Source: an uncultured Alphaproteobacteria bacterium
GTDB taxonomy: Bacteria > Pseudomonadota > Alphaproteobacteria > Rs-D84
NCBI GenBank assembly: GCA_949878575.1
Contig: CATLAX010000002.1
Span: 65,378-129,377 of the forward strand
DNA: 64,000 bases
Direction: 5' to 3'
Of the stretch, positions 8,372-45,231 are shown piece by piece. How positions within the stretch are numbered: the stretch's first letter is position 1; every line of letters starts with the position of its first letter. Both the position numbers and the translations under genes were made by a program. The notes beneath the pieces are model-generated. The model was given only the letters and a program-made list of their open reading frames with translations. It had not been told where the DNA came from and made no database searches.

Positions 8372-11299
8372 TTAGAAACGATACCGCGCGTTCAGCATGC
8401 CGGTCTGGGACGTATAGTCGCGTCTGATGTCAATATTATAACTGATGCCCAGTTCAACCTGGTCAAACGTCAGGTTCAGCCCCGCGCCCAGTTCCAGTCC
8501 CAGACGTTCCAGACGTTCGCCGTCCAGACCATATTTGGACACACCCGGGACGGATACTTTAACATCATCCGCCTGGGAAACAATGTCGTAATTTACCATC
8601 GCACGCAGTTCCGGACGCAGCAATATGGTATCTGTCGCCGCGAAATCATATGCATATTTTGCACCCAGACCCGCCGTTAGAAAATCCGAATCCGCCGACG
8701 AAACATTTATGTCCATATTGGTATCGTATGAATCTGATGTGATGTGCAGATAGCGCAATGTGGCCTCCGGCGTGATGCCGAACGGCAAATCATACCCTGT
8801 TGTCACCGCGGCACCGTATGCGTCTATATCACGGTCTGATTTTACTTTCATGCCGAATGCATCGCCATGCTCTGACAAATCGGCCATGGTGTAATTTAAC
8901 ACGCCGTTTACATACCACTGCGACGGCTTATACTGGCCGTATACGAACAGTGTGTTTCCGTCTATGTCGGCATTGCGCGCATACATGTCCGCATCGGCCG
9001 TACTAAACGCGTAACCGGCGCCCAGCGTAATGTCATGTCCGGCAATGAAATCCAGACCGGCCGCGAAACCGTACATGTCATAGTTAAACGCGCCATCACT
9101 GTCGGATTTGTTCATCATACCCGCGGCCCATACATGCGACACACCGTACACAATGTCACCCAGTTTGCGCCCCATATCCGCCAGACGCGCGGATACCAGA
9201 CGCCCGACGGAACCCTGTATGTTGCCGGCGACAGACTGTGCAATCGGCGAATTGTCCGGCTGCAACGCATTTGCGGCATGTTCCACCGCGCCGGCATCAC
9301 CCGCCGCCAGCGCCTTTTGAGCATTTACAACCATGCCGTTTAACGCATCGGATGATGAATTCGCCATATTTACAATCATATCGGCCGCTGATGCGGACAG
9401 ACCCGCCCCTGCAATGGCATCCGCGGATTTAACAGACGCAACGATGAAATTATTTTCATCCAGCACAACATCAAACAGCGAATTTTCCAACAGACCGACA
9501 TGAACATTTTCAAAACCAGAGTTTTTGAATATATCATACGTTCCGGCACGGCCAACCGACAAATTCAGGTCGCCGACACCTTCAAAGGACTTTACATCAA
9601 ACGTTGCATATTCCTTGTCGTTGCGCAGTTCCGCGTTCAACACGCCGTCCAAGACTATTGTATCCTGGGTTACGGACGACACACCAATATTTGCAACCGC
9701 GCCCTTTTCAATGGTCATTGTACCGTTGCCCGTAATAACGCCATCCGACGTCATAACCGCACCGTCGCGCAGGGTCAGTGCGCCATTGTTATGCCATACC
9801 GCACGTGGTCCGACGGATATTTTGTTAAATTCCGCGACATTGCCGGCCGTGTCCAGATTTACGTTGTTCATGCTTAACGCTGTGTCGCCCTTTACGTTAT
9901 ATGCGCGCAGGTCGCCCTTAACATTAACAGCGCCGCCGCCGGATATGTTCAATACGGCGTTGCCGGTTACACTGTCGGCATCCGAATTATCCGGCGCCGA
10001 TTTCTGGCGACTGCCAATATTTACATCACCGGCGATATTAATCGTGTTTCTGGCACCGTCCGTGTCCAGATTCACGGTTGTGTTTCCAACGCGGCCGCCC
10101 GGACGCTGGGCCCCGGCGATAATCCAACCGTCGGCCCCCGGCGTTGTGACATACTTGCCATCGTTGCCCAATGTATAACCTATCCATGTGTTTCCGGAAA
10201 CGTCAACCGTTACGTTACCGGCGGACAGATAATTTCCAACGGCGATAACCTCTTCCCGTATAACGGAATCCTCTATATCAATATTCACATTCCTGGCGCC
10301 GACATAATGTTCGGGAACCCATGTTTCCCAGCCATTAACATTCGTCGTGGTGGAACCGCGAACCTGGCCTAGGTTGGAATTTTCAACATCAATGTTTATA
10401 TCGCCCAAAACACCCGTGTCACCTTTTACGGCCCCCATGGCAATCTGTTGGCCGAAAATGCCAGGCGCCGTCACATTATCCGCCTTTATTGTCAGATTTC
10501 CGTCAATAACGTTGCGGTTTCCACCTGACGCCATCAGGCCGACAACACGATCAGATGCAACAACGTTTTCCAAATCCAGCGTAACATCGCCATGCACAAC
10601 AGAACCCGCGCCGGTGGCGTATATTCCATACATTGTGGAATTTGAAACGGTTGCATCCACGTCGCCGTTTATAACACCGCTGCTTACACCGCCACGATTG
10701 CCGAAGTATAAATTACCCATTTTCAAATTATAATTATCAAACACCATCTTTTGTCCGGTGATGACAGATTCATAGCCACCGGTATAAATATGCGTCAGGA
10801 CATCGGCTGTTGACGCATTGTCCAGATGATTGCCGTTTAAGAACACTCCGCCGATATAACCGCTGCCGCTGGTTGCGATTTTAACGTTGTTGTTGCCGGC
10901 GAAAATAAAATTGCCGGATGCCGCCGCAGTGGTTGCCAGATTAAACGTCTGATTCGGATTCCATTTATTAAACACAACTGTCGGTGTCCAGTTGCCAGGA
11001 TGCTGCGGTTCACTGGAAGCATGCTGATTACTGGCAAAAACACCCGTAAATCCGCCAACATCGCCCAGCAAATGTAAAAAGACATCGGTTTTATCGCCCT
11101 CTCGCACCAAAACAGTGCCGTCACCGGTCAGCGTGCCGGTATATCCTGTGCTGGTCAAAACATCCCAGGTATCACCGGCCGCAATGTTACACGTGTCGCC
11201 CGTGCAAGTTACATTGGCCGCCATGGCCGGCATAACAATCAGCGCAGGCAATACGGAACACGCCTTTAGCAAGGTTACGAATTGTTTTGGATACGGCAT
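8372..11299 (-). CDS. Autotransporter (type Va) outer-membrane protein with large G/N/V-rich beta-helical passenger
   Basis: Signal peptide MPYPKQFVTLLKACSVLPALIVMPAMA. The passenger is repetitive. The C-terminal beta-barrel domain ends ...MLNARYRF (aromatic terminal residue). RBS ggagataaaac upstream. Confidence 0.8.
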   Translation of the reverse strand: MPYPKQFVTLLKACSVLPALIVMPAMAANVTCTGDTCNIAAGDTWDVLTSTGYTGTLTGDGTVLVREGDKTDVFLHLLGDVGGFTGVFASNQHASSEPQHPGNWTPTVVFNKWNPNQTFNLATTAAASGNFIFAGNNNVKIATSGSGYIGGVFLNGNHLDNASTADVLTHIYTGGYESVITGQKMVFDNYNLKMGNLYFGNRGGVSSGVINGDVDATVSNSTMYGIYATGAGSVVHGDVTLDLENVVASDRVVGLMASGGNRNVIDGNLTIKADNVTAPGIFGQQIAMGAVKGDTGVLGDINIDVENSNLGQVRGSTTTNVNGWETWVPEHYVGARNVNIDIEDSVIREEVIAVGNYLSAGNVTVDVSGNTWIGYTLGNDGKYVTTPGADGWIIAGAQRPGGRVGNTTVNLDTDGARNTINIAGDVNIGSRQKSAPDNSDADSVTGNAVLNISGGGAVNVKGDLRAYNVKGDTALSMNNVNLDTAGNVAEFNKISVGPRAVWHNNGALTLRDGAVMTSDGVITGNGTMTIEKGAVANIGVSSVTQDTIVLDGVLNAELRNDKEYATFDVKSFEGVGDLNLSVGRAGTYDIFKNSGFENVHVGLLENSLFDVVLDENNFIVASVKSADAIAGAGLSASAADMIVNMANSSSDALNGMVVNAQKALAAGDAGAVEHAANALQPDNSPIAQSVAGNIQGSVGRLVSARLADMGRKLGDIVYGVSHVWAAGMMNKSDSDGAFNYDMYGFAAGLDFIAGHDITLGAGYAFSTADADMYARNADIDGNTLFVYGQYKPSQWYVNGVLNYTMADLSEHGDAFGMKVKSDRDIDAYGAAVTTGYDLPFGITPEATLRYLHITSDSYDTNMDINVSSADSDFLTAGLGAKYAYDFAATDTILLRPELRAMVNYDIVSQADDVKVSVPGVSKYGLDGERLERLGLELGAGLNLTFDQVELGISYNIDIRRDYTSQTGMLNARYRF

Positions 11300-14764: not shown

Positions 14765-15643
14765 TTACTTAATCCCCATACCAAAGCGGGACCAGCGCAT
14801 CTTGCTGCCCCAATTCCACACAGCCAGCATGGATGAATAATAATTGTGGGAATACCACACAAACCATACCTTGCCCAGGACATAGTCACGCGGCACGGCA
14901 CCGATGTCGGCGCGGCTGTCGCCACTGTTGTCGCGGTTGTCACCCATAAAGAACAAATGTTTTTCCGGGACCGTGAATTCCGGAGTATTGTCAAACATTG
15001 CGTCATCGGAATATTCAATTATGCTGTGCCGGACGCCGTTCGGCAGTGTTTCCGTATATTCTGTAACATGCGCCACCCCGCATGCCGCCGGATAAGTCTT
15101 ACAATATCTGTCGGATTTGTATTCAATGGTGTAATTAAATGTTGCGGGAACGTTATCAACCCAAATCTTGTTGCCTTTGATGGCCATGCCGCCCTCATAA
15201 AACCCGACAGAACGCAATGACCGCGGCAGAACCGCGACAACATACGGTCTGGGGTTGTCACGCGGAACCATTTCACCGTTGATATACAGGCGGCCCTCTT
15301 TCATCTGTATTCTGTCGCCGGGCAAACCAATTAAGCGCTTAACATAATCCTGGGACTCATTGACAGGATTGCGGAATACAATAACATCGCCCATTTTCGG
15401 TTCGTGCGCAAAAAAGCGACCGTTCCAAATCTTCCATGATCCGAACGGGAACGAGTACCTGGAATAACCGTACGCCCATTTTTCCACAAATATGTGGTCG
15501 CCGATATGCAGCGTCGGTATCATTGACCCGGACGGAATATTAAACGGTTCCAATAACAGACTTCTAAATATAATTGCGATTAAGGCACCGTAAAACAGCG
15601 TATTAAACCATTCACGGGCAACATTTTTATTTTTTGATGACAT
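14765..15643 (-). CDS. lepB: Signal peptidase I
   Basis: SGSMIPTL (catalytic Ser box), GDNRDNSGDSR and KRLIGLPGD motifs. Start MSSKNKNV at 15643. The upstream extension of the 507-aa ORF is antisense to comM. Confidence 0.9.
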   Translation of the reverse strand: MSSKNKNVAREWFNTLFYGALIAIIFRSLLLEPFNIPSGSMIPTLHIGDHIFVEKWAYGYSRYSFPFGSWKIWNGRFFAHEPKMGDVIVFRNPVNESQDYVKRLIGLPGDRIQMKEGRLYINGEMVPRDNPRPYVVAVLPRSLRSVGFYEGGMAIKGNKIWVDNVPATFNYTIEYKSDRYCKTYPAACGVAHVTEYTETLPNGVRHSIIEYSDDAMFDNTPEFTVPEKHLFFMGDNRDNSGDSRADIGAVPRDYVLGKVWFVWYSHNYYSSMLAVWNWGSKMRWSRFGMGIK

Positions 15644-15716
15644 TGATGTTTCCGTCCTTTTGTTTGCGGGTATTTTAGAACTTGAATTACAAATGCGCAA
15701 GCTATAATATGCAAAC

Positions 15717-17252
15717 ATGATTTCTTTAAATTCCATAATATTCAACGGCATGGAAATTACGCGCATTGATGTCCAAGTGCAGCTGTCGTCCGGCCTGGCA
15801 AAACCTGAGTTCAAGATAATCGGCCTGGCCGACAGGGCGGTCAAAGAATCCGCGGAACGCGTGCGAAATGCACTGGGGGCGCTGAACCTGGGACTGCCGC
15901 CGAAAAAGCTGACTGTGAACCTGTCGCCGGCGGACATGGAAAAGACCGGTGCACACTTTGACCTGCCGATACTGTGTGCAATCATGTGCGCAATCGGCGC
16001 CCTGCCAGAAGACAAATTATCCAAATACATTATAATGGGTGAAATCGGACTGGACGGTGCGATAGTAAAAACAGACGGCGTGTTGCCGGCGGGCGTATGG
16101 GCGGCAAAAAACAACATGGGGCTGATATGTCCCGGCGACCAGGGGGCGGAGGCCGCCATGTCGTCCAACCCGGATATTTTGGCGCCGAAACACGTTCTGG
16201 ATTTGATAAACCATTTTCGCGGCGGCGCAACACTGGCCGCGCCGGATTCTTGTGACGCGGCAAAAAACAACACCGCAAACACAACCATAGACCTCTCTGA
16301 CGTACACGGCCAGGCGGCGGCAAAGCGCGCACTGGAAATAGCGGCGGCCGGCGGTCACGCAATGCTGATGATCGGGCCGCCGGGCTCTGGAAAGACCATG
16401 CTGGCGTCAAGACTGGCGACAATAATGCCGGAAATGACAACGGAAGAGGTTTTGGAAACATCCATAATATATTCAATCGCCGGCCAGTTAAACGGCCGCG
16501 GGCTGATTTCCACGCGCCCGTTTCGCAGCGTGCATCACACCGCCAGTGCGGTTGCACTGGCCGGGGGCGGCGGGAATGCGCGACCGGGGGAAATATCGCT
16601 GGCACACAATGGTGTTTTATTTTTGGACGAACTGCCGGAATTTAACCGCACCACGCTGGAGGTTCTGCGCCAACCGATGGAGGCCGGCCATATAGTAATA
16701 TCACGCGCACGGCGCAATGCGACATACCCGGCGCGTTTTCAACTGATTGCGGCAATGAATCCGTGTCCGTGCGGTCATCTGGGCAATGCAGCAATGGCGT
16801 GTTCGCGGGCGCCCCGCTGTGCAGAGGCGTATCAAAACAAAATATCCGGCCCACTGTTGGACCGTATTGACCTGCATGTGGACGTTGACGCTGTAAACCC
16901 GTGGGAAATGCACCGCGCAGACGACACCACCGCGCGCGAAGACAGCGCAACCGTACGCGCACGAGTTGTCGCCGCACGCGAACGCCAAATTCGCCGCCAG
17001 GGAAAAATCAATGCATATCTGGACGGCCCGGAACTGGATACGGCGGCCGGCATGTCAGCGGAAACAGTGGAGTTTTTGAACACGGCGGCCGAAAAAATGG
17101 GAATGTCCGCCCGCGGCTATAACCGTATCAAACGAATTGCGCGAACGATTGCCGACCTGCGCGGGGCGGCGTCCGTGGAAATATCAGATCTGGCAGAGGC
17201 ATTGTCATACCGCCAGATAGGCCGCGGCAAATACGGAACAAAAACAGAATAA
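15717..17252 (+). CDS. YifB/ComM family Mg-chelatase-like AAA+ ATPase
   Basis: Lon-protease-like N-domain, Walker A GPPGSGKT, LFLDELPEF Walker B, C-terminal Mg-chelatase subunit ChlI-like region. Confidence 0.85.
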   Translation: MISLNSIIFNGMEITRIDVQVQLSSGLAKPEFKIIGLADRAVKESAERVRNALGALNLGLPPKKLTVNLSPADMEKTGAHFDLPILCAIMCAIGALPEDKLSKYIIMGEIGLDGAIVKTDGVLPAGVWAAKNNMGLICPGDQGAEAAMSSNPDILAPKHVLDLINHFRGGATLAAPDSCDAAKNNTANTTIDLSDVHGQAAAKRALEIAAAGGHAMLMIGPPGSGKTMLASRLATIMPEMTTEEVLETSIIYSIAGQLNGRGLISTRPFRSVHHTASAVALAGGGGNARPGEISLAHNGVLFLDELPEFNRTTLEVLRQPMEAGHIVISRARRNATYPARFQLIAAMNPCPCGHLGNAAMACSRAPRCAEAYQNKISGPLLDRIDLHVDVDAVNPWEMHRADDTTAREDSATVRARVVAARERQIRRQGKINAYLDGPELDTAAGMSAETVEFLNTAAEKMGMSARGYNRIKRIARTIADLRGAASVEISDLAEALSYRQIGRGKYGTKTE

Positions 17253-21995: not shown

Positions 21996-22088
21996 AAGGC
22001 CTCCTTGGGTGCGTTGCCAGAATTATATCACAAACACCTTTTATCACGCCAGTATTATAATAAAAAAGCCGCCATGCGGCGGCGGCAA

Positions 22089-22352
22089 CTATGACTGTAC
22101 GGGGGCCGTATTCATACCGGCATCATTCTTGGGGAAAAATTTCAGGAAATCATCCAACGACGTTCCTGTGGATTCAAGTATTTTTGCCAGACTGTGCGTT
22201 GACGGCCAGCGGGGTTTGCCGTAACTGGTCCAGCGCTTGCTTTTATTAAACGTTGTTGCATCCAGCCCACTTTTCTTTGCCAGACCGGAACACGATAAAT
22301 TTAAACTTTGGGCAAAACTGTCTATGGCATGCCATAAATCCAAATGGTTCAT
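22089..22352 (-). CDS. XRE-family helix-turn-helix transcriptional regulator (putative)
   Basis: 87 aa from MNHLDLW. The stretch LSCSGLAKKSGLDATTFNKSKR is an HTH-like pattern. RBS aaagggaggg lies 8 nt upstream. Divergent from the multi-HTH gene. Confidence 0.5.
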   Translation of the reverse strand: MNHLDLWHAIDSFAQSLNLSCSGLAKKSGLDATTFNKSKRWTSYGKPRWPSTHSLAKILESTGTSLDDFLKFFPKNDAGMNTAPVQS

Positions 22353-22385
22353 TTTTATTCCCTCCCTTTGAAGTTCGCAAAACAC

Positions 22386-22601
22386 ACCGGATTATCAGGA
22401 TTAAATTCCCTTATTGATTGAATTCTTACACAAATTCTATTATTTTTCAATCAGAAAAATATCCTATTTTGCTTTTTGGCACGGGAAAAAATGAACTTAT
22501 TGTCTATTATTATACAAACAACCCCAAAAAACAATATAAATCATTGCTATTTTATGCCTTCAGCAATTATAATTATTCCAAATACAAATAAAGGACACAA
22601 T
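22386..22601. promoter_or_regulatory. AT-rich divergent intergenic region (probable divergent promoters/operators)
   Basis: 216 bp between the divergently transcribed XRE-like gene and the tandem-HTH gene. Markedly AT-rich, with no coding signal. Confidence 0.3.
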
Positions 22602-23627
22602 ATGCCCGCAAAGGTTCCGGAAGAAAAGAAAATAGAAGTCTTAACATATGCAAAGGAAAACGGCGTCGTCCAGGCTTCACGGCACTATAAAATAAAGCAT
22701 GCCACCATCGTTCGCTGGAACAAACAGCTGCACATATATGAACCCCAGACCGCATCATATCCCCTATCCAAACGAACAGAGATTCTAAATTATGCCGCAA
22801 AACACGGTGTCCGTGCGGCCGCACGCCAGTTTAAAGTTGCAACCCACAGCATAGAAATATGGAACAGCGAATTAAAGATATACGGTTCTTTTATCAGAAA
22901 ATTTTCAAAGGAACAAAAAATAGAGATATTGCAATACGCACGCGACTATGGCGTCATTGCCGCCGCGGACAAATATGATGTTTCGCCCGCAACCATTATT
23001 TCATGGAACGGCAAACTGCACGTGTATCAGCTTAAAAAACCGTATACAAATGATGAAAAAATTAAGATTTTAACATTTGCCCGTGACAACGGCATGACCG
23101 CGGCGGAACAAAAATTTGACCTGCCGTCAACAACAATACTACGCTGGAACAAAGAATTCCATATCTATACACCGCAAAAACCGGCGGACTATAAAAAATG
23201 CACAAAAGAAGAGAAAATACAAATTTTAAAACACGCAAAAATGCTCTATGACAAGATGCCGGCGGATTCTCGCTCCGCCCACCAGGCGTTTATCCTGGTG
23301 GCGGCGGAATACAACGTTACACAGGATCAGGTGCGAAAATGGAATAAAAAATATCCAACAGTGCCTTTGCGCGCCCAAAGAAAGATTCCTGTCACACGCG
23401 AACTTATTGAAGAGGCGCAATCGGCATTAATATCGGCCCGAGGACACATTACACGCGCATCACGCCAATCCGGCATCAGCGAAAATATGCTGAACAAAAT
23501 GAAGAAAGACAAAAAAATTAAATTTGACAAAGGCCAAAGAAAAATTAAAACATATCCGCCCGTCGGCCCCAGAAAAGCCCGCATAATAAGCGGCATTATC
23601 GCCGCACTGCAAAAGAGCAAAGAATAA
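22602..23627 (+). CDS. Tandem-repeat DNA-binding protein: five transposase (IS3 OrfA)-type HTH modules plus C-terminal Fis-type HTH
   Basis: Five consecutive 45-aa repeats of the form (E/K)xK(I)x(I)LxYAxxxG...T(I)xxWNxxLxxY, resembling the IS3/IS911 OrfA HTH. The C-terminus LIEEAQSALISARGHITRASRQSGISENMLNKMKK matches the Fis/NtrC HTH_8 pattern. Start at the ATG at 22602, RBS aaaggacacaat. Confidence 0.6.
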   Translation: MPAKVPEEKKIEVLTYAKENGVVQASRHYKIKHATIVRWNKQLHIYEPQTASYPLSKRTEILNYAAKHGVRAAARQFKVATHSIEIWNSELKIYGSFIRKFSKEQKIEILQYARDYGVIAAADKYDVSPATIISWNGKLHVYQLKKPYTNDEKIKILTFARDNGMTAAEQKFDLPSTTILRWNKEFHIYTPQKPADYKKCTKEEKIQILKHAKMLYDKMPADSRSAHQAFILVAAEYNVTQDQVRKWNKKYPTVPLRAQRKIPVTRELIEEAQSALISARGHITRASRQSGISENMLNKMKKDKKIKFDKGQRKIKTYPPVGPRKARIISGIIAALQKSKE

Positions 23628-23690: not shown

Positions 23691-24350
23691 ATGAAAAAAA
23701 TATTTGCCGCAATATTCGCCATAATGCCCGTTTCCGGTCTGTATGCAAACGATTATGGCCAATATGATGAATATGACGATTACGTTGTCGCCGAGGCCCC
23801 AGAATGCCCGATATGCGAATGCGGCTGCGGCGACGATCGCAGCAACTATGTCGGATTTCGCGTTTACAAGAACGAGCATGCCGCATATTCATACAACCTG
23901 TCAAATGGTCATAAAAACAAGTACAAGAAAGATAATTTCGGATTCGGCACGACCGTTGGAAACAATTTAACAGACTGGCTGCGGGTGGAATATGAAACGC
24001 TGTACATGGGGGCGGAATACACAAAACGGGACACTGATTTTGAATACGACATTTGGGCAAACATGCTAAACGCGTATTTGCTGCGCGATTTTGAAGGCGT
24101 TGTTGCACCGTATGTCGGCGCAGGCATCGGCCTGACCGGAATATGGGGTGAAATAAACGGTGATTTGGACAATGCATTTGACCTGTCGTACCAGGCAATG
24201 GCCGGCGTCCTGTTTAAATTAAACCGGCGCATTGATTTGGATGTCGGATTTAAATACGTCAATTTTGGCAAGGTTGAACACCACCACGGCGCAACAAAGG
24301 TTGACGCAACCCAGATATATGTCGGCGGCACATACAAATTCGGATTGTAA
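23691..24350 (+). CDS. Outer-membrane beta-barrel protein (OmpA-like/Opa-like 8-strand barrel family)
   Basis: Signal peptide MKKIFAAIFAIMPVSGLYA. Alternating aromatic strands, YVGAGIGL and C-terminal ...GGTYKFGL. Start chosen at the MKKIF internal Met. Confidence 0.55.
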   Translation: MKKIFAAIFAIMPVSGLYANDYGQYDEYDDYVVAEAPECPICECGCGDDRSNYVGFRVYKNEHAAYSYNLSNGHKNKYKKDNFGFGTTVGNNLTDWLRVEYETLYMGAEYTKRDTDFEYDIWANMLNAYLLRDFEGVVAPYVGAGIGLTGIWGEINGDLDNAFDLSYQAMAGVLFKLNRRIDLDVGFKYVNFGKVEHHHGATKVDATQIYVGGTYKFGL

Positions 24351-24448: not shown

Positions 24449-24937
24449 CTATTTTTCGCGTTCCGGACGACCAAATATGGCCTTATTACCCTTGTCACCC
24501 GATAACTGGCGCGAATATTCAGCAATTTCCTGCTGAATGGCGGTTCGTGTCAAAATCAGCTCATGTCGCTGTTCCGGATTCAACGTATCGGATTTCAGTT
24601 CCGCCTCCACCTGCGCCAAAACATTGCGCGCATATGTCAAATCTTGTTGCAGTTGTTTTTGATTCCGCCCATTATCCTTTATGCCTTTAACCTTAGCCGC
24701 ATAAGAATCTATTTCTTTTTGTATTTCCGACTTTGTTTGTATCAACTGGTGGCGCTCTTCGGGATTTAAGGTATCTGATTGCAATTCCGCCTCTACCTCT
24801 GCCAACGCATTACGCGCATATTCAATTTTTGCCGTCGCATCTTCATCGGATGATTTGTCAAGCGAATATTTTGCCCCCATCAGCCCCAATATCGCGATAC
24901 CAGACACCAACACTATTTTTTTTATCCGTTTCTTCAT
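24449..24937 (-). CDS. Membrane-anchored/secreted protein with two 50-aa internal repeats, hypothetical
   Basis: N-terminal TM/signal segment. The motif EYARNALAEVEAELQSDTLNPEERHQLIQTKSEIQKEI occurs twice. The repeat is also visible at the nucleotide level (about 24540-24640 vs 24730-24830). Confidence 0.5.
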   Translation of the reverse strand: MKKRIKKIVLVSGIAILGLMGAKYSLDKSSDEDATAKIEYARNALAEVEAELQSDTLNPEERHQLIQTKSEIQKEIDSYAAKVKGIKDNGRNQKQLQQDLTYARNVLAQVEAELKSDTLNPEQRHELILTRTAIQQEIAEYSRQLSGDKGNKAIFGRPEREK

Positions 24938-24938
24938 A

Positions 24939-25874
24939 TTATTTTCCTTTTATCTTTTGTACCAGCTTTTTATAAGAATCTATAAATTTGTTAACAAATA
25001 CAAACTTGGTTGCATCTGCATACTTCCAACGCCTATTAGAAATAATACTTCTTCCCGCCACATGAACACCATATAGATACCATTTATTGCCATAATTGAC
25101 AAATACAGGGTCACCAGAATCACCTCCCCACGTCTGACATCCGTGCATCATATCCCCCGCTGTTATCGTATCTACAACACATTTCGACATTTTTAAGCGG
25201 TTTGTATCACGGAAAGTATTTGCCGAAACACCCGGGACCAATCCTTCCCCTACCTGGTTAACAAATTGTCTCCCTTTACTTTTGCGGGCGTTAAAATCTT
25301 CGGCCTTTTTATTACTTTTAATAAATTTGGCATATTCACGTCTTAACGTGTTTATTTCCTGGTCGCTTAGTATCTTCAAGGCGCCATATCCGACAGCCTG
25401 GGCAAATGTACCCATGCCGGGCACCCCAAAAAAGATAGCCCTAATTTCACTTGATGTAAAGCTTTTCACACGAATATTTGAACGAACACTGCGTGATGGA
25501 ACCAACAAAGCCCAATCTGATTTTGCCCCACCTGTAGAATCATATTCCCCATCCGGATAAATATTTTTATCGGAAGCAGATGTTTTTGCTATTGTCATAT
25601 TACCATGGTTCGCAGAATTCAACCTAATCCTTCTTAGATTCCTTTTGCCGCTTTCGTCATAAATACAATGCTTTGCCGTTACAACAATACCATCAGCGGT
25701 CAATGTTCCCGTACAAAAATTCCGACCGTTTTGTTGCAGGCCTATTACCGCAGAATACGGTTCTGAGGAACGGCTTACATATTGACGCTTATCAATAGTG
25801 TACGTTGCAGCGCTGGCCGACCCGTACATACATACCGTGGCAACAGTTACCAAAAGCATGCAATATTTTTTCAT
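24939..25874 (-). CDS. Secreted trypsin-like (S1 family) serine protease
   Basis: Signal peptide. Catalytic His in VTAKHC, Asp in DWALLV, Ser in GDSGDPVF. Confidence 0.75.
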   Translation of the reverse strand: MKKYCMLLVTVATVCMYGSASAATYTIDKRQYVSRSSEPYSAVIGLQQNGRNFCTGTLTADGIVVTAKHCIYDESGKRNLRRIRLNSANHGNMTIAKTSASDKNIYPDGEYDSTGGAKSDWALLVPSRSVRSNIRVKSFTSSEIRAIFFGVPGMGTFAQAVGYGALKILSDQEINTLRREYAKFIKSNKKAEDFNARKSKGRQFVNQVGEGLVPGVSANTFRDTNRLKMSKCVVDTITAGDMMHGCQTWGGDSGDPVFVNYGNKWYLYGVHVAGRSIISNRRWKYADATKFVFVNKFIDSYKKLVQKIKGK

Positions 25875-35697: not shown

Positions 35698-38139
35698 TTA
35701 TGAATACTGATAATTGTTTACATACTTGTCCATCATGCCTTTTTTCTTTTTATCAAACACTTTCTGTTTCCACTGCTTTGACATGGGCGTCCATGAATAC
35801 ATGCGGCCCAGATGGGAATCACGCCCGGATTCCAAGAAATCCCAGTATGCCATCAGCTCACGATAACCGTCCTTGTGATTATCGTCCCAGTTGGCCATTT
35901 CCTCGTTGCGCCTGTCAATGCGGTCATTTAATTCTTGAATCTGCTGCGTGGCGTTGTCATACTTTGCCACCCGGTCCGCCTTGCGATCGGTCGCACGGAC
36001 ACGAGCATCCAGACGAGTTTTTTTATTGTCGGCATCTTCCAGCATTAATTTTGCCGCATCGTACGCCGGACCATGCGCCGGCGTGGCACCGGGGGCCGTG
36101 GGGTGCCAGACCTGACCTGTTTTGGCCCGATAGGCGGCATCCAGCGGGGCGCGCTGTGCAACCAGATTGTTTTTGTCATCCTGCAGTTGCAATATTCTGT
36201 CCGCAATAGCCTGAGCCATCGGTGCAGGCGCGCCGGCCATTTGCGCCGTCAGGTTTGCGATATTTGTATTAATCTGCTGTATCTGCACATCGGCATTTGT
36301 TAGTTGGTTGTTTAATGCATCAACCTCTTGGACCAAAGTCTCTGCCTGTTGAAACTGCGGACGCGCACGCGCCGCATCTAAACGCGCACGGCTGCGTGCA
36401 TGCCGGGCCCGTTCACGTTCAACCTCATCACGTTTTTGTTCAATATTGGTTGCGTTTATACGACCGTTTCCACGGTCCAAAGCGGTCAAATCCTGTTCAT
36501 GCGTTGAACGCGCGGCCACATCCATGGCGTTGTTTTGATTGCGCAGGTTGTCCGCATCAGAACGCGCCTGGGCGTTTTCACGCAACCACGTTTTATGCGC
36601 CCCGTCCATCCGGCCGCCCTTATGATTAAATTTGCTGCCGTTGAGTTTATAGGCGTTGCCCGCCACTGTAATCGCATACCCCAGACTCATAAACGCAAAC
36701 TTTATGCTTTTATCCATTGCCTTGGTAACGAACTGCATACCCTCGTTTTTGTTCCAGGACAGGCCGCCATCGGAAAATATCGTCAAAGATTCCCCGCGCA
36801 GAGCATCCATAATCTTGCTGGTGGTGTAACCGTATTTGATTACGGACAAAACCTCCATCGCTGTTTTTGCCTCATCCTTTTTGCCTTCGCGGACGGCCTT
36901 CATAATCATTTCAGACACAATCGCCTTTAACTGGCCGCCGTTTTTCAGCGCGCCTTCAAACGCCTTTGGCATAGAGGCTTTTAATTCCCCCATTGTTTTG
37001 ACAAACCATTCAAAATGCTTGGTCGCCGTCGGGGACTTGTACATCAGCCCTTTTTTAATGGCGTCCGCACTGTCCAAAACCTTTGCCAGACCGTCCGTCG
37101 GCTTTATCTTTGCACCGCTGACAGCCTTTACTATCAGTTTGGCAGAATTTGACATATACAGCCGGTCGCCGTGAAGCTTTATATACTTGTCCAAAACATT
37201 GTCGTACGTATCGTCGGCCCATCTGGACAGCTGTTGCATCGGGGTTAATTTATCGTCGCGTTTCGGCGGAACATAGTCTTCGCTGTTCTTGTCGTCGTAT
37301 GCAATTTTTTCCTTTGCCTTGTCCATCTGGCCGGAAATTTTGCCGCCATCAAAATTCTTGAAGACATCGGAAACTTTCTTTTCCCTATAGATGGTGTTCA
37401 GCATTGACTGATAATTCAGCTTAAAGCTGTCCATCTTTTGCTGCGGGATGGCCCCGTCTTTGAAGCCTTCACGCGTTTTGGAAAAATCAATGGACTCATT
37501 TCCCAACTGCAGACGGGCGCGAAAGTCCGGATCATACTGATATGACGTCAAATAGTCGGCAATTTGTACCAGTCTTTGTTGAAATTCCGGGTCTTTGTTA
37601 TATTTCTTGGACGATATACCAGACAACAGGTCGGAATATTTGAACTTATCATCCAGCAGCCCCCACTGCTTTAAAATTGTGGGCAAAGTATTCTGGTACG
37701 CCTGCAGAAATGTTTTAAATTCACCCTGTATTTCGTTTTCCGCGTCCGTGTTTGCAACAGCGTTTGAAAACAGATGAGTCGCAGGATCGCCGAAATATTC
37801 ATCCAGGAACTCTTTTGCGGGGCCGTTTTCCTTGAAATCTTCCCGGTGGGCCTGCATTTTACGAAATGCGTTTTGAAAGGCCTTAAACAAATCCTTCCAT
37901 TCGTCGTCAGACAGTTCCCATGTGCCGCCAACATCTGTCGCATCCGGCAAATCGTTTTGAACCAGTTTGCCGTTTGCATCAACATGCATCAGCTTTTTCT
38001 TCCAGTCCTTCATATTGCCGCGGAAATCGTCATTCTTGGCGTATGCATCATACTGGGCGCGAACTTCGGCCGGCATCTGATTGAAGCGCAGCTGCATAAA
38101 ATATTGCAGTAAAAAATCTTTCATTTTTATATCGGCCAT
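35698..38139 (-). CDS. Large hypothetical protein with C-terminal coiled-coil (effector-like ORFan)
   Basis: 813 aa from MADIKMKDF. A strong RBS aagaggtg sits 7 nt upstream of the ATG at 38139. No signal peptide. The C-terminal 300 aa are heptad-rich (LNNQLTNADVQIQQINTNIANL...). Confidence 0.6.
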   Translation of the reverse strand: MADIKMKDFLLQYFMQLRFNQMPAEVRAQYDAYAKNDDFRGNMKDWKKKLMHVDANGKLVQNDLPDATDVGGTWELSDDEWKDLFKAFQNAFRKMQAHREDFKENGPAKEFLDEYFGDPATHLFSNAVANTDAENEIQGEFKTFLQAYQNTLPTILKQWGLLDDKFKYSDLLSGISSKKYNKDPEFQQRLVQIADYLTSYQYDPDFRARLQLGNESIDFSKTREGFKDGAIPQQKMDSFKLNYQSMLNTIYREKKVSDVFKNFDGGKISGQMDKAKEKIAYDDKNSEDYVPPKRDDKLTPMQQLSRWADDTYDNVLDKYIKLHGDRLYMSNSAKLIVKAVSGAKIKPTDGLAKVLDSADAIKKGLMYKSPTATKHFEWFVKTMGELKASMPKAFEGALKNGGQLKAIVSEMIMKAVREGKKDEAKTAMEVLSVIKYGYTTSKIMDALRGESLTIFSDGGLSWNKNEGMQFVTKAMDKSIKFAFMSLGYAITVAGNAYKLNGSKFNHKGGRMDGAHKTWLRENAQARSDADNLRNQNNAMDVAARSTHEQDLTALDRGNGRINATNIEQKRDEVERERARHARSRARLDAARARPQFQQAETLVQEVDALNNQLTNADVQIQQINTNIANLTAQMAGAPAPMAQAIADRILQLQDDKNNLVAQRAPLDAAYRAKTGQVWHPTAPGATPAHGPAYDAAKLMLEDADNKKTRLDARVRATDRKADRVAKYDNATQQIQELNDRIDRRNEEMANWDDNHKDGYRELMAYWDFLESGRDSHLGRMYSWTPMSKQWKQKVFDKKKKGMMDKYVNNYQYS

Positions 38140-38266
38140 TTTCGCACCTCTTGCTCTATCTCTGGTTATTATAGTGCTTTTTGACAAAAAATCAATATCC
38201 GTGCCCTAAAAATGCTTTCCTTTGCCCCGGGAAACCGGCTATAATAATCACAGAGAGAATGAAAAA

Positions 38267-40337: not shown

Positions 40338-40413
40338 GGGGACATAGCTCAGTTGGTAGAGCAAATGACTTTTAATCATTGGGTCCAGGGTTCGAGTCCC
40401 TGTGTCCCCACCA
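40338..40413 (+). tRNA. tRNA-Lys (anticodon TTT)
   Basis: GGGGACATAGCTCAGTTGGTAGAGC... with anticodon loop CUUUUAA and GGTTCGAGTCC T-loop. CCA encoded. Confidence 0.9.
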
Positions 40414-40421
40414 GAATAAAA
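40398..40421 (+). repeat. attL core (direct repeat, overlaps tRNA-Lys 3' end)
   Basis: Exact 24-bp match to 47470-47493. Confidence 0.8.
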
Positions 40422-40548
40422 TTGTTAGAAATCCAACACTTTTGTTGGGTTTTTATTTTTTTGGTTTGAACCACACGAAACACACCAAAGCCTTAGAAAT
40501 CCAACATTTTCGTATTTTCACTTTTGCCAGAAACAAAGGGATACAGAT

Positions 40549-42114
40549 ATGGCAAAAACGTGTAATACAAGGTGTAATACAGACCACAATATATTATTGC
40601 GAAACAACATTTTTTATTATAGGGTTGAATTACCACGAGAAAACGGTAAAAGACGGTTCTTGTGCAAGTCTTTAAAGACATATAATTACTATGAAGCACG
40701 GGAAAAGGCTAAAATTATGGCTGAACAACTGCAAAATTTTGAAGTGCACGAATTCATTAAATCCATAGAATTATTGTGGAATCAGTTAAGTTTTGGCTAC
40801 GAATACCCAAATTTTGGTAAAAATATTTATGGTTTTATGCCGAATACCCCCATACGAACCATTTTGCCAGATTCTAGACCAGAAATTATCAATGGTCTGT
40901 TAGAAAAAGCAGATAAATTAAACCTGATTAAAAATAAGTCTTTGTCTGCACACGAAAAATCCGTTATAAAATTACTGAAAGAAAACAAAGAAAAACTGAT
41001 AGAATTGCAAGAAGATAATAATAAATTATTGGATAAAAATAACCGATTACTTGAAATGCTAATTTCTCATCAGGCCGCGAACACCGTGGCACAACAACCA
41101 AAAGTTGTTAAACATACGGTCGGGGAAATTTTGACATCTATGGTAAAGACGGCAAATAATGAAAAAGCCGAATCCGACCGAAAATATCCTGCAATAAAAA
41201 AACTTATTCAAGATGTCGGACTCGGGCTTGATTCTGATTATATGGATTTTTACAAACCGGAAATCATGCATAAAATTGGAGATTCTGTCCGTAATATGCC
41301 CAATGTAAAAAGTGGCACACAGCGAAAATACATCCAATATGTTATCCAGTTGATAAAGCACGCCCATATTTTGGAACCTGATACATATAAAGAAAATCTG
41401 ATACAAATATTACCAAAATTTGAAAAGACACCGAAATCTCAACAGAAACCGCACATGCCGTATACTGACGACCAGTTGTCGGAAATGTTTGACCCAAAAC
41501 ACGACTTTTTCAAAAAGAATCCCGACCAATTCTGGACAGCAATGATTGCATTGTTTACGGGTTCACGACAAAATGCCGCAATGACCCTGCAATATGGGGA
41601 CGTGCTTAAAAAAGATGGTTTGGATTGTATCCATTTTACTGAAAATCACTCCATTAAACACCTTAAAACAGAAGCCTCTGAACGTATTGTCCCGATAGCA
41701 CAACAATTCTTAAATTTGGGATTTGTAGAATATGTGCGGAACAGACAGGCAAAATTAAAGGCAGCAGATACAGATTTTATATTTCCGAAATGTCAAACCA
41801 GTGGTGGACAGGAAAATAATAAATTTGCAACCCGTGGAATATTAAAATTCTTGTCGGATATTGATATTAAAGATAAAAACGGGGATAAACAGGATTTTCA
41901 TTCTTTCCGTAAAAATGCCAGTTTAAGACTGCAAAAAGTGGGAGTTTTACCAACCTTTATCAATGACATTATTGGTTGGGAAGGCAAAAGCACAATGGAA
42001 CAATCCTATTCCAATCACAGATTACCCGAAATCAAGGAACAGGTGGATAAATTAAACTATGATTTCCTGCAACCGCATTTTGACAAGTGGAAAGAAATAA
42101 TGAAAGGGGTATAA
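40549..42114 (+). CDS. Tyrosine-type site-specific integrase (phage integrase family)
   Basis: C-terminal catalytic signature R...HSFRK...Y (HSFRKNASLRL; ...EQSYSNHRL). Located immediately 3' of the tRNA. The true start may be an internal Met (e.g. MAEQLQ). Confidence 0.8.
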   Translation: MAKTCNTRCNTDHNILLRNNIFYYRVELPRENGKRRFLCKSLKTYNYYEAREKAKIMAEQLQNFEVHEFIKSIELLWNQLSFGYEYPNFGKNIYGFMPNTPIRTILPDSRPEIINGLLEKADKLNLIKNKSLSAHEKSVIKLLKENKEKLIELQEDNNKLLDKNNRLLEMLISHQAANTVAQQPKVVKHTVGEILTSMVKTANNEKAESDRKYPAIKKLIQDVGLGLDSDYMDFYKPEIMHKIGDSVRNMPNVKSGTQRKYIQYVIQLIKHAHILEPDTYKENLIQILPKFEKTPKSQQKPHMPYTDDQLSEMFDPKHDFFKKNPDQFWTAMIALFTGSRQNAAMTLQYGDVLKKDGLDCIHFTENHSIKHLKTEASERIVPIAQQFLNLGFVEYVRNRQAKLKAADTDFIFPKCQTSGGQENNKFATRGILKFLSDIDIKDKNGDKQDFHSFRKNASLRLQKVGVLPTFINDIIGWEGKSTMEQSYSNHRLPEIKEQVDKLNYDFLQPHFDKWKEIMKGV

Positions 42115-42421
42115 CAATATCCCTTTTTTTTCGGTTTACATTTTATAATCCATTAAATATAATAGGTTTTGAATCAGTGGGGACACTGGTTCGGGGTCAT
42201 CTCAGGCCTAGTATGTTCGGTGCAAAACATAGAATACATCGTGATTCCGATTTCCTATGTTTTGACGTCGTTATTATCCCTGACTGTTATAGTCGGGGAG
42301 CTGTTGGTTATAAAACACGGTTTTTCCGAAAGACCAATGGGGTCAATAACATACTGATTTGAGAACTCCCCGACCGCTAGTGTTCTGCTAGTGGTCTAAT
42401 TTTTATACAAAGGGGAAAAAT

Positions 42422-42943
42422 ATGTTTCTTGTTTTGGCTTTGATATATTTCTTGCCAACAATAATCGCAATATGCAGAAAGTGCAATATTGGGCTTACGT
42501 TATTGGTAAACTTGTTCCTGGGGTGGACATGTATAGGTTGGATTGTTGCGTTGGTTCTGGCATTAAAAGGTACTGAATCCGTCCGAAATCAACCAACCAT
42601 TGTGATAAACAATACAAATGCCGATGGAAATGCAAAAATTCAACAAGACGTGAGAAATATAGCCCAAGACAAATACGCAGATAAAACAGAAAAAAGCATG
42701 CGTGGTGCAAGTCCATTAGCTGTTGGAATATGGTCTGCAATATTGGGAATATTTGGTTTAGCGTGGATTGGAACATTTGACCCAACAATGGGTTTTATCG
42801 CATTACTGGGGTTGGCTGGTTTGGGCTTTGAGGCTTGGGAATGGCTAAAAGTAAAATTTAACGATTCCATTGAACAAGCCGCACAAAAGAAGTCTCAAGA
42901 ACTCAAACAACAATTAAATAAAAAAGGAGCAAAAAATGACTGA
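42422..42943 (+). CDS. Superinfection-immunity (Imm)-like membrane protein
   Basis: The N-terminal YFLPTIIA...NLFLGWTCIGWIVALVLAL matches the Imm_superinfect family pattern. Additional C-terminal TM helices. Confidence 0.45.
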   Translation: MFLVLALIYFLPTIIAICRKCNIGLTLLVNLFLGWTCIGWIVALVLALKGTESVRNQPTIVINNTNADGNAKIQQDVRNIAQDKYADKTEKSMRGASPLAVGIWSAILGIFGLAWIGTFDPTMGFIALLGLAGLGFEAWEWLKVKFNDSIEQAAQKKSQELKQQLNKKGAKND

Positions 42944-43403
42944 AAACAAACCAACAAATATAGCCTTTAATAAAACAATTCTGTATTTTATGGCTATAGG
43001 CTGTATTCTTGTCGCACTGGTTTTATTTTTTAATAGAAACAATGCCGAGTTAAACATGGGAAGCAGTCTTATTTTTTATATAATTTGGGGTTGTATACTA
43101 TTATTTGGATTTGGTGGATTTAAACTGCTGTATAAAACATTTGGTGATAACCAACCTGCAATAGAATTCAATCCAAAAGGAATGATAATACACAGTTTGC
43201 AAAACGAAAAGTTGAACAAATATGTTTTATGGAAAGATGTTGCCGACATAGAAATGGGAGCAAATGGTAAAATCCGTATAAAATATAAAGATACCAACTT
43301 AGACGCAGAGGAAATAACATCGTATTTGTTCAATATCCCCAAACAGGAATTATTCAAAGTTTTATATTCGTATGCAAAACAGTATGGGGATATAAAAAAC
43401 TAA
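42936..43403 (+). CDS. Hypothetical 2-TM membrane protein (island cargo)
   Basis: 155 aa with two N-terminal TM helices and a cytoplasmic domain. Overlaps the preceding gene (ATGA coupling). RBS aaaaggagcaaaaaATG. Confidence 0.45.
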   Translation: MTENKPTNIAFNKTILYFMAIGCILVALVLFFNRNNAELNMGSSLIFYIIWGCILLFGFGGFKLLYKTFGDNQPAIEFNPKGMIIHSLQNEKLNKYVLWKDVADIEMGANGKIRIKYKDTNLDAEEITSYLFNIPKQELFKVLYSYAKQYGDIKN

Positions 43404-43429
43404 GCATATTATAAACAAAGGAGAAAAAT

Positions 43430-43858
43430 ATGTATACAAATAATGCAGCAAAATCAAATTCTGTAATAGGCTGGTTGGCAGCATTCGGATATATTATTGG
43501 TTATGTCCTGCTTTTATTTATAGGCCAAGCCGCTACTTGGATTAGTGTAATTTTATGTGTAGTAGACCGTCAAACCTTAAAAACATACGGTAAACATATT
43601 GCATTGGGTTGGTGTTTGTTACCACCTGTTTATATGTATAAACGTGCCAAAGTGTTGAATGATGGTTTTACAAAATTCTGGGTAAATTTAATAACCGCAA
43701 TCATATTCATTATATTAGCAGTTTATGCCGTGGTTCATACGACATCTTGTATGACGCAAGCATTGCCGTATTTTAATAATAATCACGAAATTGCAGCCCA
43801 GTTCTGTCAATGCACATTGGGTAATTCACCAGAAGAATGTTTGCGAAATTTGTTATAA
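43430..43858 (+). CDS. Hypothetical membrane protein (island cargo)
   Basis: 142 aa with three hydrophobic segments. RBS aaggagaaaaatATG. Confidence 0.45.
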   Translation: MYTNNAAKSNSVIGWLAAFGYIIGYVLLLFIGQAATWISVILCVVDRQTLKTYGKHIALGWCLLPPVYMYKRAKVLNDGFTKFWVNLITAIIFIILAVYAVVHTTSCMTQALPYFNNNHEIAAQFCQCTLGNSPEECLRNLL

Positions 43859-43949
43859 CCAATGTAAGGCAGATGTAAATCTGCCTTTTAAATACTCATT
43901 TTTACCTGGGCGACTGCCATTTGACGAATATATAATTGTATAAAACAAG

Positions 43950-44147
43950 GTGGCAAAAATGAAAATTGCATACGCTAAACAGTCTGGGAATATGGTAAGT
44001 CTTTATGACCCGAATAACCGTGAATATGTCCGTATATCTGGTGAACTGGTGTCTTATACATCTGAATTTGTAATAACCCGTGGCAGTGGGATAAATGGAC
44101 CAAAACACATTTATAATGCCTGTGGTCGGTGGGTTCGTGATATTTAA
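43950..44147 (+). CDS. Small hypothetical protein (island cargo)
   Basis: 65 aa. RBS aaggtggcaaaaATG. Confidence 0.35.
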   Translation: MAKMKIAYAKQSGNMVSLYDPNNREYVRISGELVSYTSEFVITRGSGINGPKHIYNACGRWVRDI

Positions 44148-44650
44148 TGCTGAAATGTCGGCAGGTTGAATAACGTCTCGGAAAATATCAATCTGTCCGT
44201 ATTAAAATGTCCTAGGTTATCCGCCGTGATTTCTTTTGTTATATACCCGTTTAATATATCTGGGGTTCGGTCTATTTCCTGCAAATCAAGAGTCCTGTCG
44301 GTCAATTTTAATTTTTCCGTTATATTATCCAGCGCAGTTTGAATTTCCGTGTCTGTGTATTTTGGAGCCCATAATAACAAATGCAGGTGCCAGACTTTAT
44401 TTGCCCCCAGTTCTGCCGTTCCGACAAAATGCACTGGGTTCCGATTCCAATGACGCCCGACAAGGGATTTTTCAAAATGCCGTATTATTTTATGAAATTT
44501 TGGCAGAGCCCTTTCAAAACTATCCGTATATGCCCCTATCGGTAGTCGGACGGTCAAGAAATGTGAAAATATTTGATTGTTTAACCAGTCTTGCAAGGAT
44601 TCCTGTATTTTCTGGGTTTGTGTCGGGCTGTAATAAGTTATGTTTTTCAT
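44144..44650 (-). CDS. Small rolling-circle replication initiator-like protein (HUH endonuclease motifs)
   Basis: The three ordered RCR motifs are present: FLTVRL (motif I-like), VWHLHLLLW (HUH, motif II) and NGYITKE (YxxK, motif III). Confidence 0.5.
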   Translation of the reverse strand: MKNITYYSPTQTQKIQESLQDWLNNQIFSHFLTVRLPIGAYTDSFERALPKFHKIIRHFEKSLVGRHWNRNPVHFVGTAELGANKVWHLHLLLWAPKYTDTEIQTALDNITEKLKLTDRTLDLQEIDRTPDILNGYITKEITADNLGHFNTDRLIFSETLFNLPTFQH

Positions 44651-45187
44651 TTATTGCTCTTTTTTATTTTAATGAGTCCAGATAAAGCAATTCCCAGTTG
44701 ATAAGGGATTTATATATCTTTATTTTCTCTGCATTCTGGATATAAATTTTTATGGTTAAAATTCATTTATATTTATGTAATCTGGTATAAAACGATACTT
44801 GGCGGAAATTTCGCCATAACGCGAGGTGCCGAAATTCCAGACAAAATCCGTCAATATGGCTATATATGAGCCCACACCAGAGGGATAATGTCGTTAAAAC
44901 ATACCCGAACCCTTACCAGATGGCCTGTCTAGTAAGGGTCGGATATTTTGCACATGCACAATACGAAAAGGCCTTTTTCGTCTGACCCGGGGGAGTATTT
45001 ATTATTTGAGTTCAGAAAGAACCACGATTTTCCCCGTTCTGTATCCCCGGGGCGACGTTTTACCGCTCCGAGGTATATATTAGAACTGTGTTCGTATAAT
45101 TATATTTTTGTGTAAAACTTTTTGTTTTATAAATATTTATAGGGGGAGTATAAATAAAATGGGAAACTGGGAAAGTGGGATTTTCGG

Positions 45188-45214
45188 GTAAAAAAAAGTG
45201 GGGAAATTCCCCAC
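45188..45214 (-). terminator. Rho-independent terminator after helicase gene
   Basis: Perfect palindrome gtggggaa-a-ttccccac followed by a T8 run on the minus strand. Confidence 0.5.
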
Positions 45215-45231
45215 CGTTTTTAATATGTAAT

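Follow-up and report, generated by a model that had tools for sequence, protein, structure and literature searches.

A conserved chromosomal gene for a protein of six helix-turn-helix modules in uncultured gut Alphaproteobacteria

Bacterial transcription factors normally reach long DNA sites by oligomerising one or two helix-turn-helix (HTH) domains; here we describe a gene whose product carries six HTH modules in a single chain. It lies in a 64,000-nucleotide stretch (hereafter the window) of contig CATLAX010000002.1 from an uncultured alphaproteobacterium of the Rs-D84 lineage (GenBank assembly GCA_949878575.1, positions 65,378 to 129,377 of the forward strand), where it is divergently transcribed from a gene for a small HTH protein and is followed by a gene for an outer-membrane protein (OMP) of the beta-barrel type. 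We refer to it as the array gene and to its product as the array protein.

The closest described systems resemble the array protein in different respects. In insertion sequences (IS) of the IS3 family, OrfA carries one copy of an HTH of the HTH_Tnp_1 type (as in IS629 OrfA, 2rn7), and the DDE (rve) catalytic domain is usually found in a -1 frameshifted OrfB; the array protein, by contrast, has five to six HTHs in one chain and lacks a leucine zipper, OrfB/DDE, a frameshift and IS ends, its gene being single-copy and syntenic. Myb-repeat readers (c-Myb R1-R3, S. pombe Reb1, SNAPc4), whose repeats are built around a tryptophan-triad core, have no sequence relation to it (best E-value 0.09, not significant). 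The Brinker DNA-binding domain (DBD) of Drosophila is the best structural and a near-best sequence match for a single module, the sequence relation being marginal (E ~0.06), and Pipsqueak, also of Drosophila, which binds DNA via four tandem HTH (Psq) modules (PMC10379775), follows the same logic of an array of simple HTHs. Both come from eukaryotes and carry further domains (BTB or others), whereas the array protein is bacterial and consists of six modules and nothing else.

Among bacterial proteins, BldC reads direct repeats as cooperative, head-to-tail, non-covalent multimers (PMC5859096). MerR_1 models match all members of the array family, and a covalent array would reproduce the geometry of the small MerR-like proteins of BldC/Xis type; however, BldC is a 68-aa single domain, while the array modules are joined in one chain and have each diverged. 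The target selector TnsD has multiple HTHs (PMC10293859) and the phage protein CasPRIB2 has four C-terminal, dispensable HTH domains (bioRxiv 10.64898/2026.02.23.707548), but in both cases the HTHs are appended to other domains (a TniQ core and CapR/AP2, respectively), and both are likened to the array protein by architecture alone. Our literature search on bacterial HTH arrays returned such analogies only (TnsD, CasPRIB2, Psq and BldC). Multi-HTH DNA binders are already known, and the bacterial six-module form is uncharacterised and one of hundreds of similar arrays.

The array protein and its modules

The array gene starts at ATG 22602, which is preceded by a ribosome-binding site (AAGGA, 22591-22595). 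Because 19 of 19 aligned homologues begin at the methionine of this codon, a longer mechanical open reading frame (ORF) starting from TTG 22476 was ruled out as the gene. The product is thus 341 aa long, rather than the 342 aa given in a preliminary description of the locus, whose account of five tandem HTH repeats of about 45 aa otherwise stands. The gene and the parts of its product, with the helices of an AlphaFold2 (AF2) model where these define a repeat, are as follows:

22602 to 23627, + strand: gene for the six-module HTH protein, ATG to TAA with the stop included (341 aa); defined by the ORF and its translation, the common start of its orthologues and the ratio of non-synonymous to synonymous substitutions (dN/dS)
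22611 to 22742, + strand: repeat R1 (aa 4-47), a three-helix HTH; z 12-24 to R2-R4, AF2 helices 7-20, 22-29 and 33-43
22752 to 22886, + strand: repeat R2 (aa 51-95); from AF2 and self-similarity, best single-repeat Pfam match BrkDBD (12.3 bits)
22893 to 23030, + strand: repeat R3 (aa 98-143); the sole repeat that passes a Pfam threshold alone (HTH_Tnp_1, 24.9 bits, cut-off 24.1)
23037 to 23171, + strand: repeat R4 (aa 146-190); z 13-24 to R1-R3, AF2 helices 150-163, 165-172 and 176-186
23196 to 23363, + strand: repeat R5 (aa 199-254), divergent; from the repeat alignment, HTH_28 15.3 bits, AF2 helices 202-218, 226-237 and 241-250
23385 to 23519, + strand: sixth module (aa 262-306), a probable Fis/NtrC-like HTH, from its sub-threshold resemblance to HTH_8
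23520 to 23624, + strand: basic tail with a terminal amphipathic helix (aa 323-340); net charge +8, conserved T-x-PPVG-(R/K)2-3 motif, from charge, hydrophobic moment and the AF2 helix at 323-340

Pairwise local alignment scores among R1-R4 lie 12-24 standard deviations (SD) above those of shuffled sequences. R5, in which the repeat alignment places 13 extra residues between helix 1 and helix 2, reaches 1.6-7.6 SD against R1-R4, and the C-terminal module has no significant pairwise similarity to the repeats when scored against shuffles. Tandem Repeats Finder (TRF) detected no repeat in the DNA of the array gene, and the duplications are therefore old. The preliminary description had called for an AlphaFold model of the full protein, and AF2, supplied with the family alignment, returned an all-helical model of six separate three-helix bundles and the terminal helix (aa 323-340). 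Its high mean predicted local distance difference test (pLDDT) value of 81.7, paired with a predicted template modelling (pTM) score of only 0.29, indicates that the individual beads are well folded and that their mutual arrangement is not fixed. The linkers are conserved as strongly as the helices (conservation 0.56-0.68 versus 0.65-0.69), and the recognition helices of the repeats follow the pattern xTIxRWNKx, with repeat-specific residues around an invariant W-N. The protein as a whole is strongly basic (isoelectric point 9.98, net charge +33): every module or linker is neutral or positive, the modules all being positively charged, and the last 35 residues carry +8.

HTH class and transposase ancestry

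Across the whole protein, both HTH_Tnp_1 (PF01527; 33.8 bits, gathering cut-off 24.1) and HTH_28 (PF13518; 32.5 bits, cut-off 25) score above their thresholds, these scores being sums over the repeats, and no single repeat reaches the 25 bits of HTH_28. When the repeats were scanned singly against Pfam, R1 gave 14.2 bits (IS630 HTH), R2 12.3 bits (BrkDBD) and R5 15.3 bits (HTH_28), and R4 gave no match; the repeat-by-repeat agreement with transposase-type profiles that had been anticipated thus holds for the whole protein and, taken alone, for R3 (HTH_Tnp_1, 24.9 versus 24.1 bits). HTH_28, HTH_Tnp_1, HTH_23, BrkDBD and MerR_1 each match 20 of 20 family members, and HTH_psq matches 15 of the 20. 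Fold searches with the module recovered, in addition to Brinker, Cgl2762 (2jn6), which we take to belong to the HTH_Tnp_1 / IS3 OrfA N-terminal class, as well as the GcrA DBD, the Tn3 resolvase HTH, c-Myb R1 and IS629 OrfA; PDB sequence searches with profiles of the full protein, the repeats and the C-terminus gave marginal matches only.

Because of these shared Pfam-model and structural matches, the modules are assigned to the simple transposase/homeodomain-like tri-helical HTH class, for which several labels, IS3/IS911 OrfA among them, serve equally well. The HTH class named in the preliminary description is therefore upheld but its specific IS3/IS911 OrfA label is not, as five models match all 20 members and the NCBIfam IS3 model (NF033516) reaches 26.2 bits against a cut-off of 160, aligning over model positions 1-125 only. 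A LysM domain (PF01476) that scored above threshold (26.5 bits) was rejected, since the score is a sum over the repeats with zero significant stretches and the model of the protein is all-helical (the LysM fold is beta-alpha-alpha-beta); this false positive arises from the pattern 'GVxAAAxxFxVxxxTIxxWN'.

The sixth module stands apart from the five repeats. HTH_8 (PF02954) gives it 13.5 bits in context and 17.9 bits alone, below the cut-off of 22, and matches 11 of 20 family members (best E 4.4e-4), with 20.6 bits (E 3.7e-4) in a 314-aa relative at locus L013. Its profile aligns in register with residues 67-93 of E. coli Fis at 37% identity, a weak match (hhalign E 0.004, probability 8%), and its register and fold are consistent with those of Fis and NtrC. 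The module is thus probably a Fis/NtrC-like HTH that falls outside the family by the Pfam test: the resemblance reported earlier stands, whereas the assignment to HTH_8 does not. Fis and NtrC use this HTH to bind as dimers, whereas this module would be the last bead of a proposed monomeric array.

Given these similarities, the gene might be read as a degraded IS3-family element, an OrfA remnant or a pseudogene. The whole-protein match to HTH_Tnp_1 agrees with such an origin, as do the weak NCBIfam IS3 match (26 bits) and a 'transposase' family in PHROG (phrog_151) that aligns to residues 145-337 (E 5e-10). However, the NCBIfam score is far under its cut-off of 160, and the other marks of an IS are missing. 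As the preliminary description had stated, there is no DDE/rve domain in the array protein by Pfam scan. We found no frameshift partner ORF (the ORF downstream encodes the OMP beta-barrel), no flanking IS-like inverted repeats (three short, imperfect, non-flanking ones are the only inverted repeats), no second copy of the array in the window by tblastn, and no tblastn match in phage and plasmid collections. An intact, syntenic orthologue under purifying selection (dN/dS 0.23) is instead present in many species. These results effectively refute this explanation, which the preliminary description had named as one that would overturn its reading. An origin in phages or defence systems was likewise rejected, as PADLOC and the phage and plasmid collections gave no match and the sole PHROG signal is to a 'transposase' N-terminal region.

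Descent of the modules from the DNA-binding N-terminus of a transposase is a separate matter. The phrog_151 match may fit an origin from a multi-HTH transposase N-terminus, and because the modules share their HTH class with the N-termini of IS3-, IS630- and pogo-type transposases, such an origin is plausible, if unproven. The earlier term 'domesticated transposase' HTH is accordingly retained as a plausible origin and not as a demonstrated one, as the modules match several HTH models equally.

Conservation, relatives and predicted DNA binding

Besides the window protein, 17 further clusters contain full-length array proteins (339-347 aa, 40-96% identity), which derive from gut metagenomes or from metagenome-assembled genomes (MAGs) of uncultured Alphaproteobacteria, 'Rickettsiales' and unclassified bacteria and are all unnamed or labelled 'hypothetical'; a shorter relative of ~200 aa occurs in a Candidatus Enterousia MAG (L014). 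In an index of public assemblies, the identical window protein turns up in 88 collection blocks. Orthologues, which at least seven species carry, occupy the same housekeeping region, with local rearrangements, in a neighbourhood that includes genes for PBP1A, an ABC exporter, ComM, LepB, RNase III and LigA and the group ackA-lrgB-tatD-thiF, such that the chromosomal position of the gene is stable. Since its orthologues are full-length and syntenic and its dN/dS is 0.23 (against one 97%-identical strain), the array gene is a functional, vertically inherited chromosomal gene under purifying selection.

Repeats at the same position in different orthologues are 52-57% identical, compared with 26-43% for paralogous repeats, whether within or between proteins, and each position keeps its own recognition-helix signature across species. 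The duplications therefore predate the family and were not followed by concerted evolution. The preliminary description had proposed a check of whether repeat number varies between strains; from the sequences, the arrangement of five repeats and one further module is old and fixed, being constant among orthologues of 339-347 aa.

Beyond these orthologues, a full hmmsearch of the family profile over 1.84 billion representative proteins identified 903 array relatives at E≤1e-3, of which 236 fall at E≤1e-10. Among the top 150, a hidden Markov model (HMM) of the repeat counts 2-10 modules per protein, with a mode of 4, and many of the four-module relatives are ~200 aa long. Two four-module genes adjoin ComM, one in MAG GCA_054298855.1 and one in Candidatus Enterousia. 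The four-module, ~200-aa relatives at L014:3919-4533 (Candidatus Enterousia) and L003:6001-6609 (a gut MAG) are convergent with ComM. Ten proteins of 480-791 aa from metagenomic sets are pure HTH arrays with no DDE domain (one of them, P0198, from a copepod transcriptome), and the metagenomic protein P0187 combines ankyrin repeats with an HTH array. Eukaryotic relatives include a protein from a copepod and one of 1976 aa in which ten Brinker-like units were counted. P0152, P0175, P0198 and P0187 are among the profile matches, in some of which, of eukaryotic origin, Brinker-like units are followed by pogo/Tc5-like segments; the matches also include giant proteins of 4000-6600 aa. We found no functional names among the relatives. 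The architecture, which the preliminary description took to be undescribed, is therefore shared by 903 relatives with 2-10 repeats, and the principle has long been known from Pipsqueak.

Taken together, we consider it fairly probable that the array protein is a strongly basic, single-chain DNA-binding protein whose six independent HTH modules bind a long composite site; binding of extended DNA, as the preliminary description had proposed, is the most plausible function of such a module array. The monomer would bind DNA as 'beads on a string', the third helix of each module (xTIxRWNKx) entering successive major grooves. Spacing would be set by the conserved linkers, which together with the basic tail would track the backbone or minor groove, so that the protein could read a single composite site, long and asymmetric, that spans several tens of bp. 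It might thus act as a regulator of transcription or in an architectural role.

The same basicity would suit a protein of lower specificity, namely a nucleoid-associated or architectural protein that coats or bridges AT-rich DNA and has no defined composite site. The very high positive charge across all modules and the tail is what such a protein would show, its terminal amphipathic helix could mediate self-association, the gene looks core-genome among those gut MAG lineages in which it occurs, and four-repeat forms of ~200 aa are common in related bacteria. However, a distinct, conserved recognition helix at each repeat position is expected more of a protein that reads specific subsites, and a dN/dS of 0.23 is not especially low. 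We regard a nucleoid protein of this kind as a possible but doubtful alternative to the reader of a composite site.

The eukaryotic resemblances bear on a further explanation, in which the protein is a secreted effector acting on host or protist chromatin (a nucleomodulin), which would account for the Brinker-type modules together with the basic tail. In its favour are the Brinker DBD as best structural match, the strongly basic C-terminus and the fact that the profile also finds eukaryotic multi-repeat proteins and the ankyrin-containing array P0187. But we identified neither secretion-system genes nor a secretion signal in the window, the neighbours of the gene are housekeeping genes in conserved synteny, the HTH class of the protein is equally typical of bacterial transposases, and nothing points to an intracellular lifestyle, which makes a nucleomodulin very improbable.

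Several points weigh against reading the array protein as a binder of one long composite site. We infer its DNA binding, the length and nature of its site and its biological target from sequence, and HTH folds can also mediate protein contacts. Most single repeats score below Pfam thresholds. Gene context varies outside one subclade and so gives no functional partner, and the sole conserved non-coding block nearby (22398-22470) lies nearer the small divergent gene, whose promoter it may be. Tandem DNA repeats or obvious periodic motif arrays were not found in the window.

A broader and rather speculative extension, which we think improbable, would make the array protein a member of a large class of single-chain 'HTH array' readers in which the number and order of modules set the length and sequence of the target, each module reading its own subsite; in this lineage, it may also be wired to the divergent small gene, possibly SciP (see below). 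If this were true, such proteins would parallel zinc-finger or TALE arrays as their HTH equivalent, found in bacteria. Six HTHs that are fused and diverged within one conserved monomer would be a different solution from the oligomerisation usual in bacteria, closer to the logic of eukaryotic Myb/Psq or zinc-finger proteins. Relatives with 2-10 modules are numerous in metagenomes and have no functional names, so that one characterised example would annotate hundreds; the family could also give a compact, modular DNA-binding scaffold, and the array protein offers an entry point to the regulation of a little-known lineage, its hosts being uncultured gut Alphaproteobacteria. What limits its novelty is that every building block is a familiar HTH and that the pairing with a small regulator is not general.

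The small divergent gene and neighbouring features

Upstream of the array gene, on the opposite strand, lies the small HTH gene, with the following features in and around the shared spacer:

22067 to 22090, - strand: terminator-like GC hairpin and T-run just 3' of the small gene (consensus scan only)
22089 to 22352, - strand: gene for a small, 87-aa HTH protein, divergent from the array gene; start by alignment, HTH_26 19 bits
22353 to 22601, strand not applicable: divergent intergenic region of 249 bp, 28% GC; promoter-like sites on both strands at chance frequency
22398 to 22470, strand not applicable: conserved block of ~73 bp, GGATTAAAT ... TTGAAT ... TTCAATCAGAAAA.T.TCCTATT, from an alignment of the window, L001 and L006

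Because 25 homologues of the small protein begin with 'M(T/N)HxDxW', its start is most likely ATG 22352 (87 aa) and not GTG 22385 (98 aa), and the spacer therefore measures 249 bp instead of 216 bp. Divergence and AT-richness, as described earlier, are confirmed, and only the length of the spacer required correction: the 216-bp version has 26% GC, and either version falls in the lowest 0.3% of GC in the window, whose mean is 47%. The small-protein family comprises 227 alphaproteobacterial clusters of ~80 aa (57-89% identity) with the invariant motifs 'SCSGLA..GLD.TTFNKSKR' and 'PRWPST', and some sources name its members 'helix-turn-helix transcriptional regulator'. Likeness to XRE regulators is weak (HTH_26 19.0 bits, cut-off 22; best PDB relative the Xre-like prophage protein 3b7h, E 0.12). 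The dN/dS of the small gene, against the same 97%-identical strain, is ~0.065.

As a lead to the possible identity of the small protein, its motif may resemble that of the cell-cycle regulator SciP of Caulobacter (C. crescentus CC_0903), an inhibitor of CtrA. A literature search with peptides of the small protein returned nothing on identity with SciP, and inspection of the spacer by eye revealed no full CtrA box (TTAA-N7-TTAA) but one TTAA half-site. SciP itself has 93 residues, including T24 and T65 (PMC4083442).

The arrangement of the two genes had suggested a regulatory switch with an XRE-like partner, in which the array and small HTH proteins would act via the AT-rich spacer between their genes to control each other or themselves. 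Divergent adjacency is kept in the window, L001/L002, L006, L009, L011 and L015-L018, even where the large proteins are only 47% identical, and the extreme AT-richness of the spacer and its conserved ~73-bp block likewise favour a switch. Within this block, which persists between genomes with array proteins of only 47-55% identity, the exact 13-mer TTCAATCAGAAAA recurs in L001, L002, L006 and L011, and there is an inverted TTGAA/TTCAA pair (TTGAA(T/A)AAT ... ATTTTTCAA). The block is closer to the small gene than to the array gene, and in a consensus scan it overlaps with promoter-like hexamers of either strand; it may be an operator or simply the promoter of the small gene. The 13-mer TTCAATCAGAAAA is not enriched in the window, and short direct or inverted repeats in the spacer occur at chance level only.

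Against a switch, the small-gene family is much commoner (227 clusters versus 19) and more conserved than the array protein, and independent of it. The pairing is lost in L004, where the two genes are 3.7 kb apart, and no small gene was found within 6 kb of the array gene in L003, L007/8, L012, L013 and L014. The array gene instead follows unrelated genes by 9-17 bp in L003, L004, L007 and L012, and in these unpaired loci we detected the 73-bp block in front of neither gene. Pairing is thus confined to one subclade: a switch is possible locally and is not supported as a general property, and overall we consider it unlikely. In L003, PBP1A and the OMP gene directly adjoin, with neither the small gene nor the array gene between them.

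On its other side, the array gene is flanked by the OMP gene:

22544 to 22573, + strand: promoter-like TTGCTA-18-TATAAT upstream of the array gene (consensus match only)
23691 to 24350, + strand: outer-membrane beta-barrel gene, 63 nt 3' of the array stop (OMP_b-brl, E 1.3e-16)

L001, L006, L009 and L011 share the TATAAT that lies ~30 nt 5' of the array gene, an OMP beta-barrel gene likewise follows 1-63 nt downstream in L001, L006, L015 and L017, and a consensus scan found no + strand terminator between the two genes in the window. The conserved TATAAT, the closeness of the OMP gene and the lack of an intervening terminator suggest a predicted array-OMP transcription unit in this lineage.

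Further along, a gene for a 162-aa coiled-coil protein with an internal ~50-aa duplication (ARNxLAxVEAELxSDTLNPExRHxLI...; 24449-24937, - strand) stands immediately downstream of a gene for a secreted trypsin-like protease (24939-25874, - strand); a homologous ORF follows the OMP gene in L017/L018. Two other large ORFs on the - strand are one of 829 aa with no Pfam match (35698-38187) and one of 975 aa (8372-11299) that encodes an autotransporter whose passenger domain belongs to no recognised family. At 40338-40413, a tRNA-Lys gene directly precedes a tyrosine-integrase ORF (40549-42114), beyond which lies an ORF of the DUF927 primase/helicase type (45232-47070), such that 40338-47070 looks like a mobile element integrated at a tRNA gene. 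Finally, the mechanical ORF of LepB (14765-16288, - strand, 507 aa) overlaps the ComM ORF (15717-17252, + strand) by ~570 nt; its S26 domain is confined to residues 225-479, and the true LepB start probably lies much further downstream than that of the mechanical ORF.

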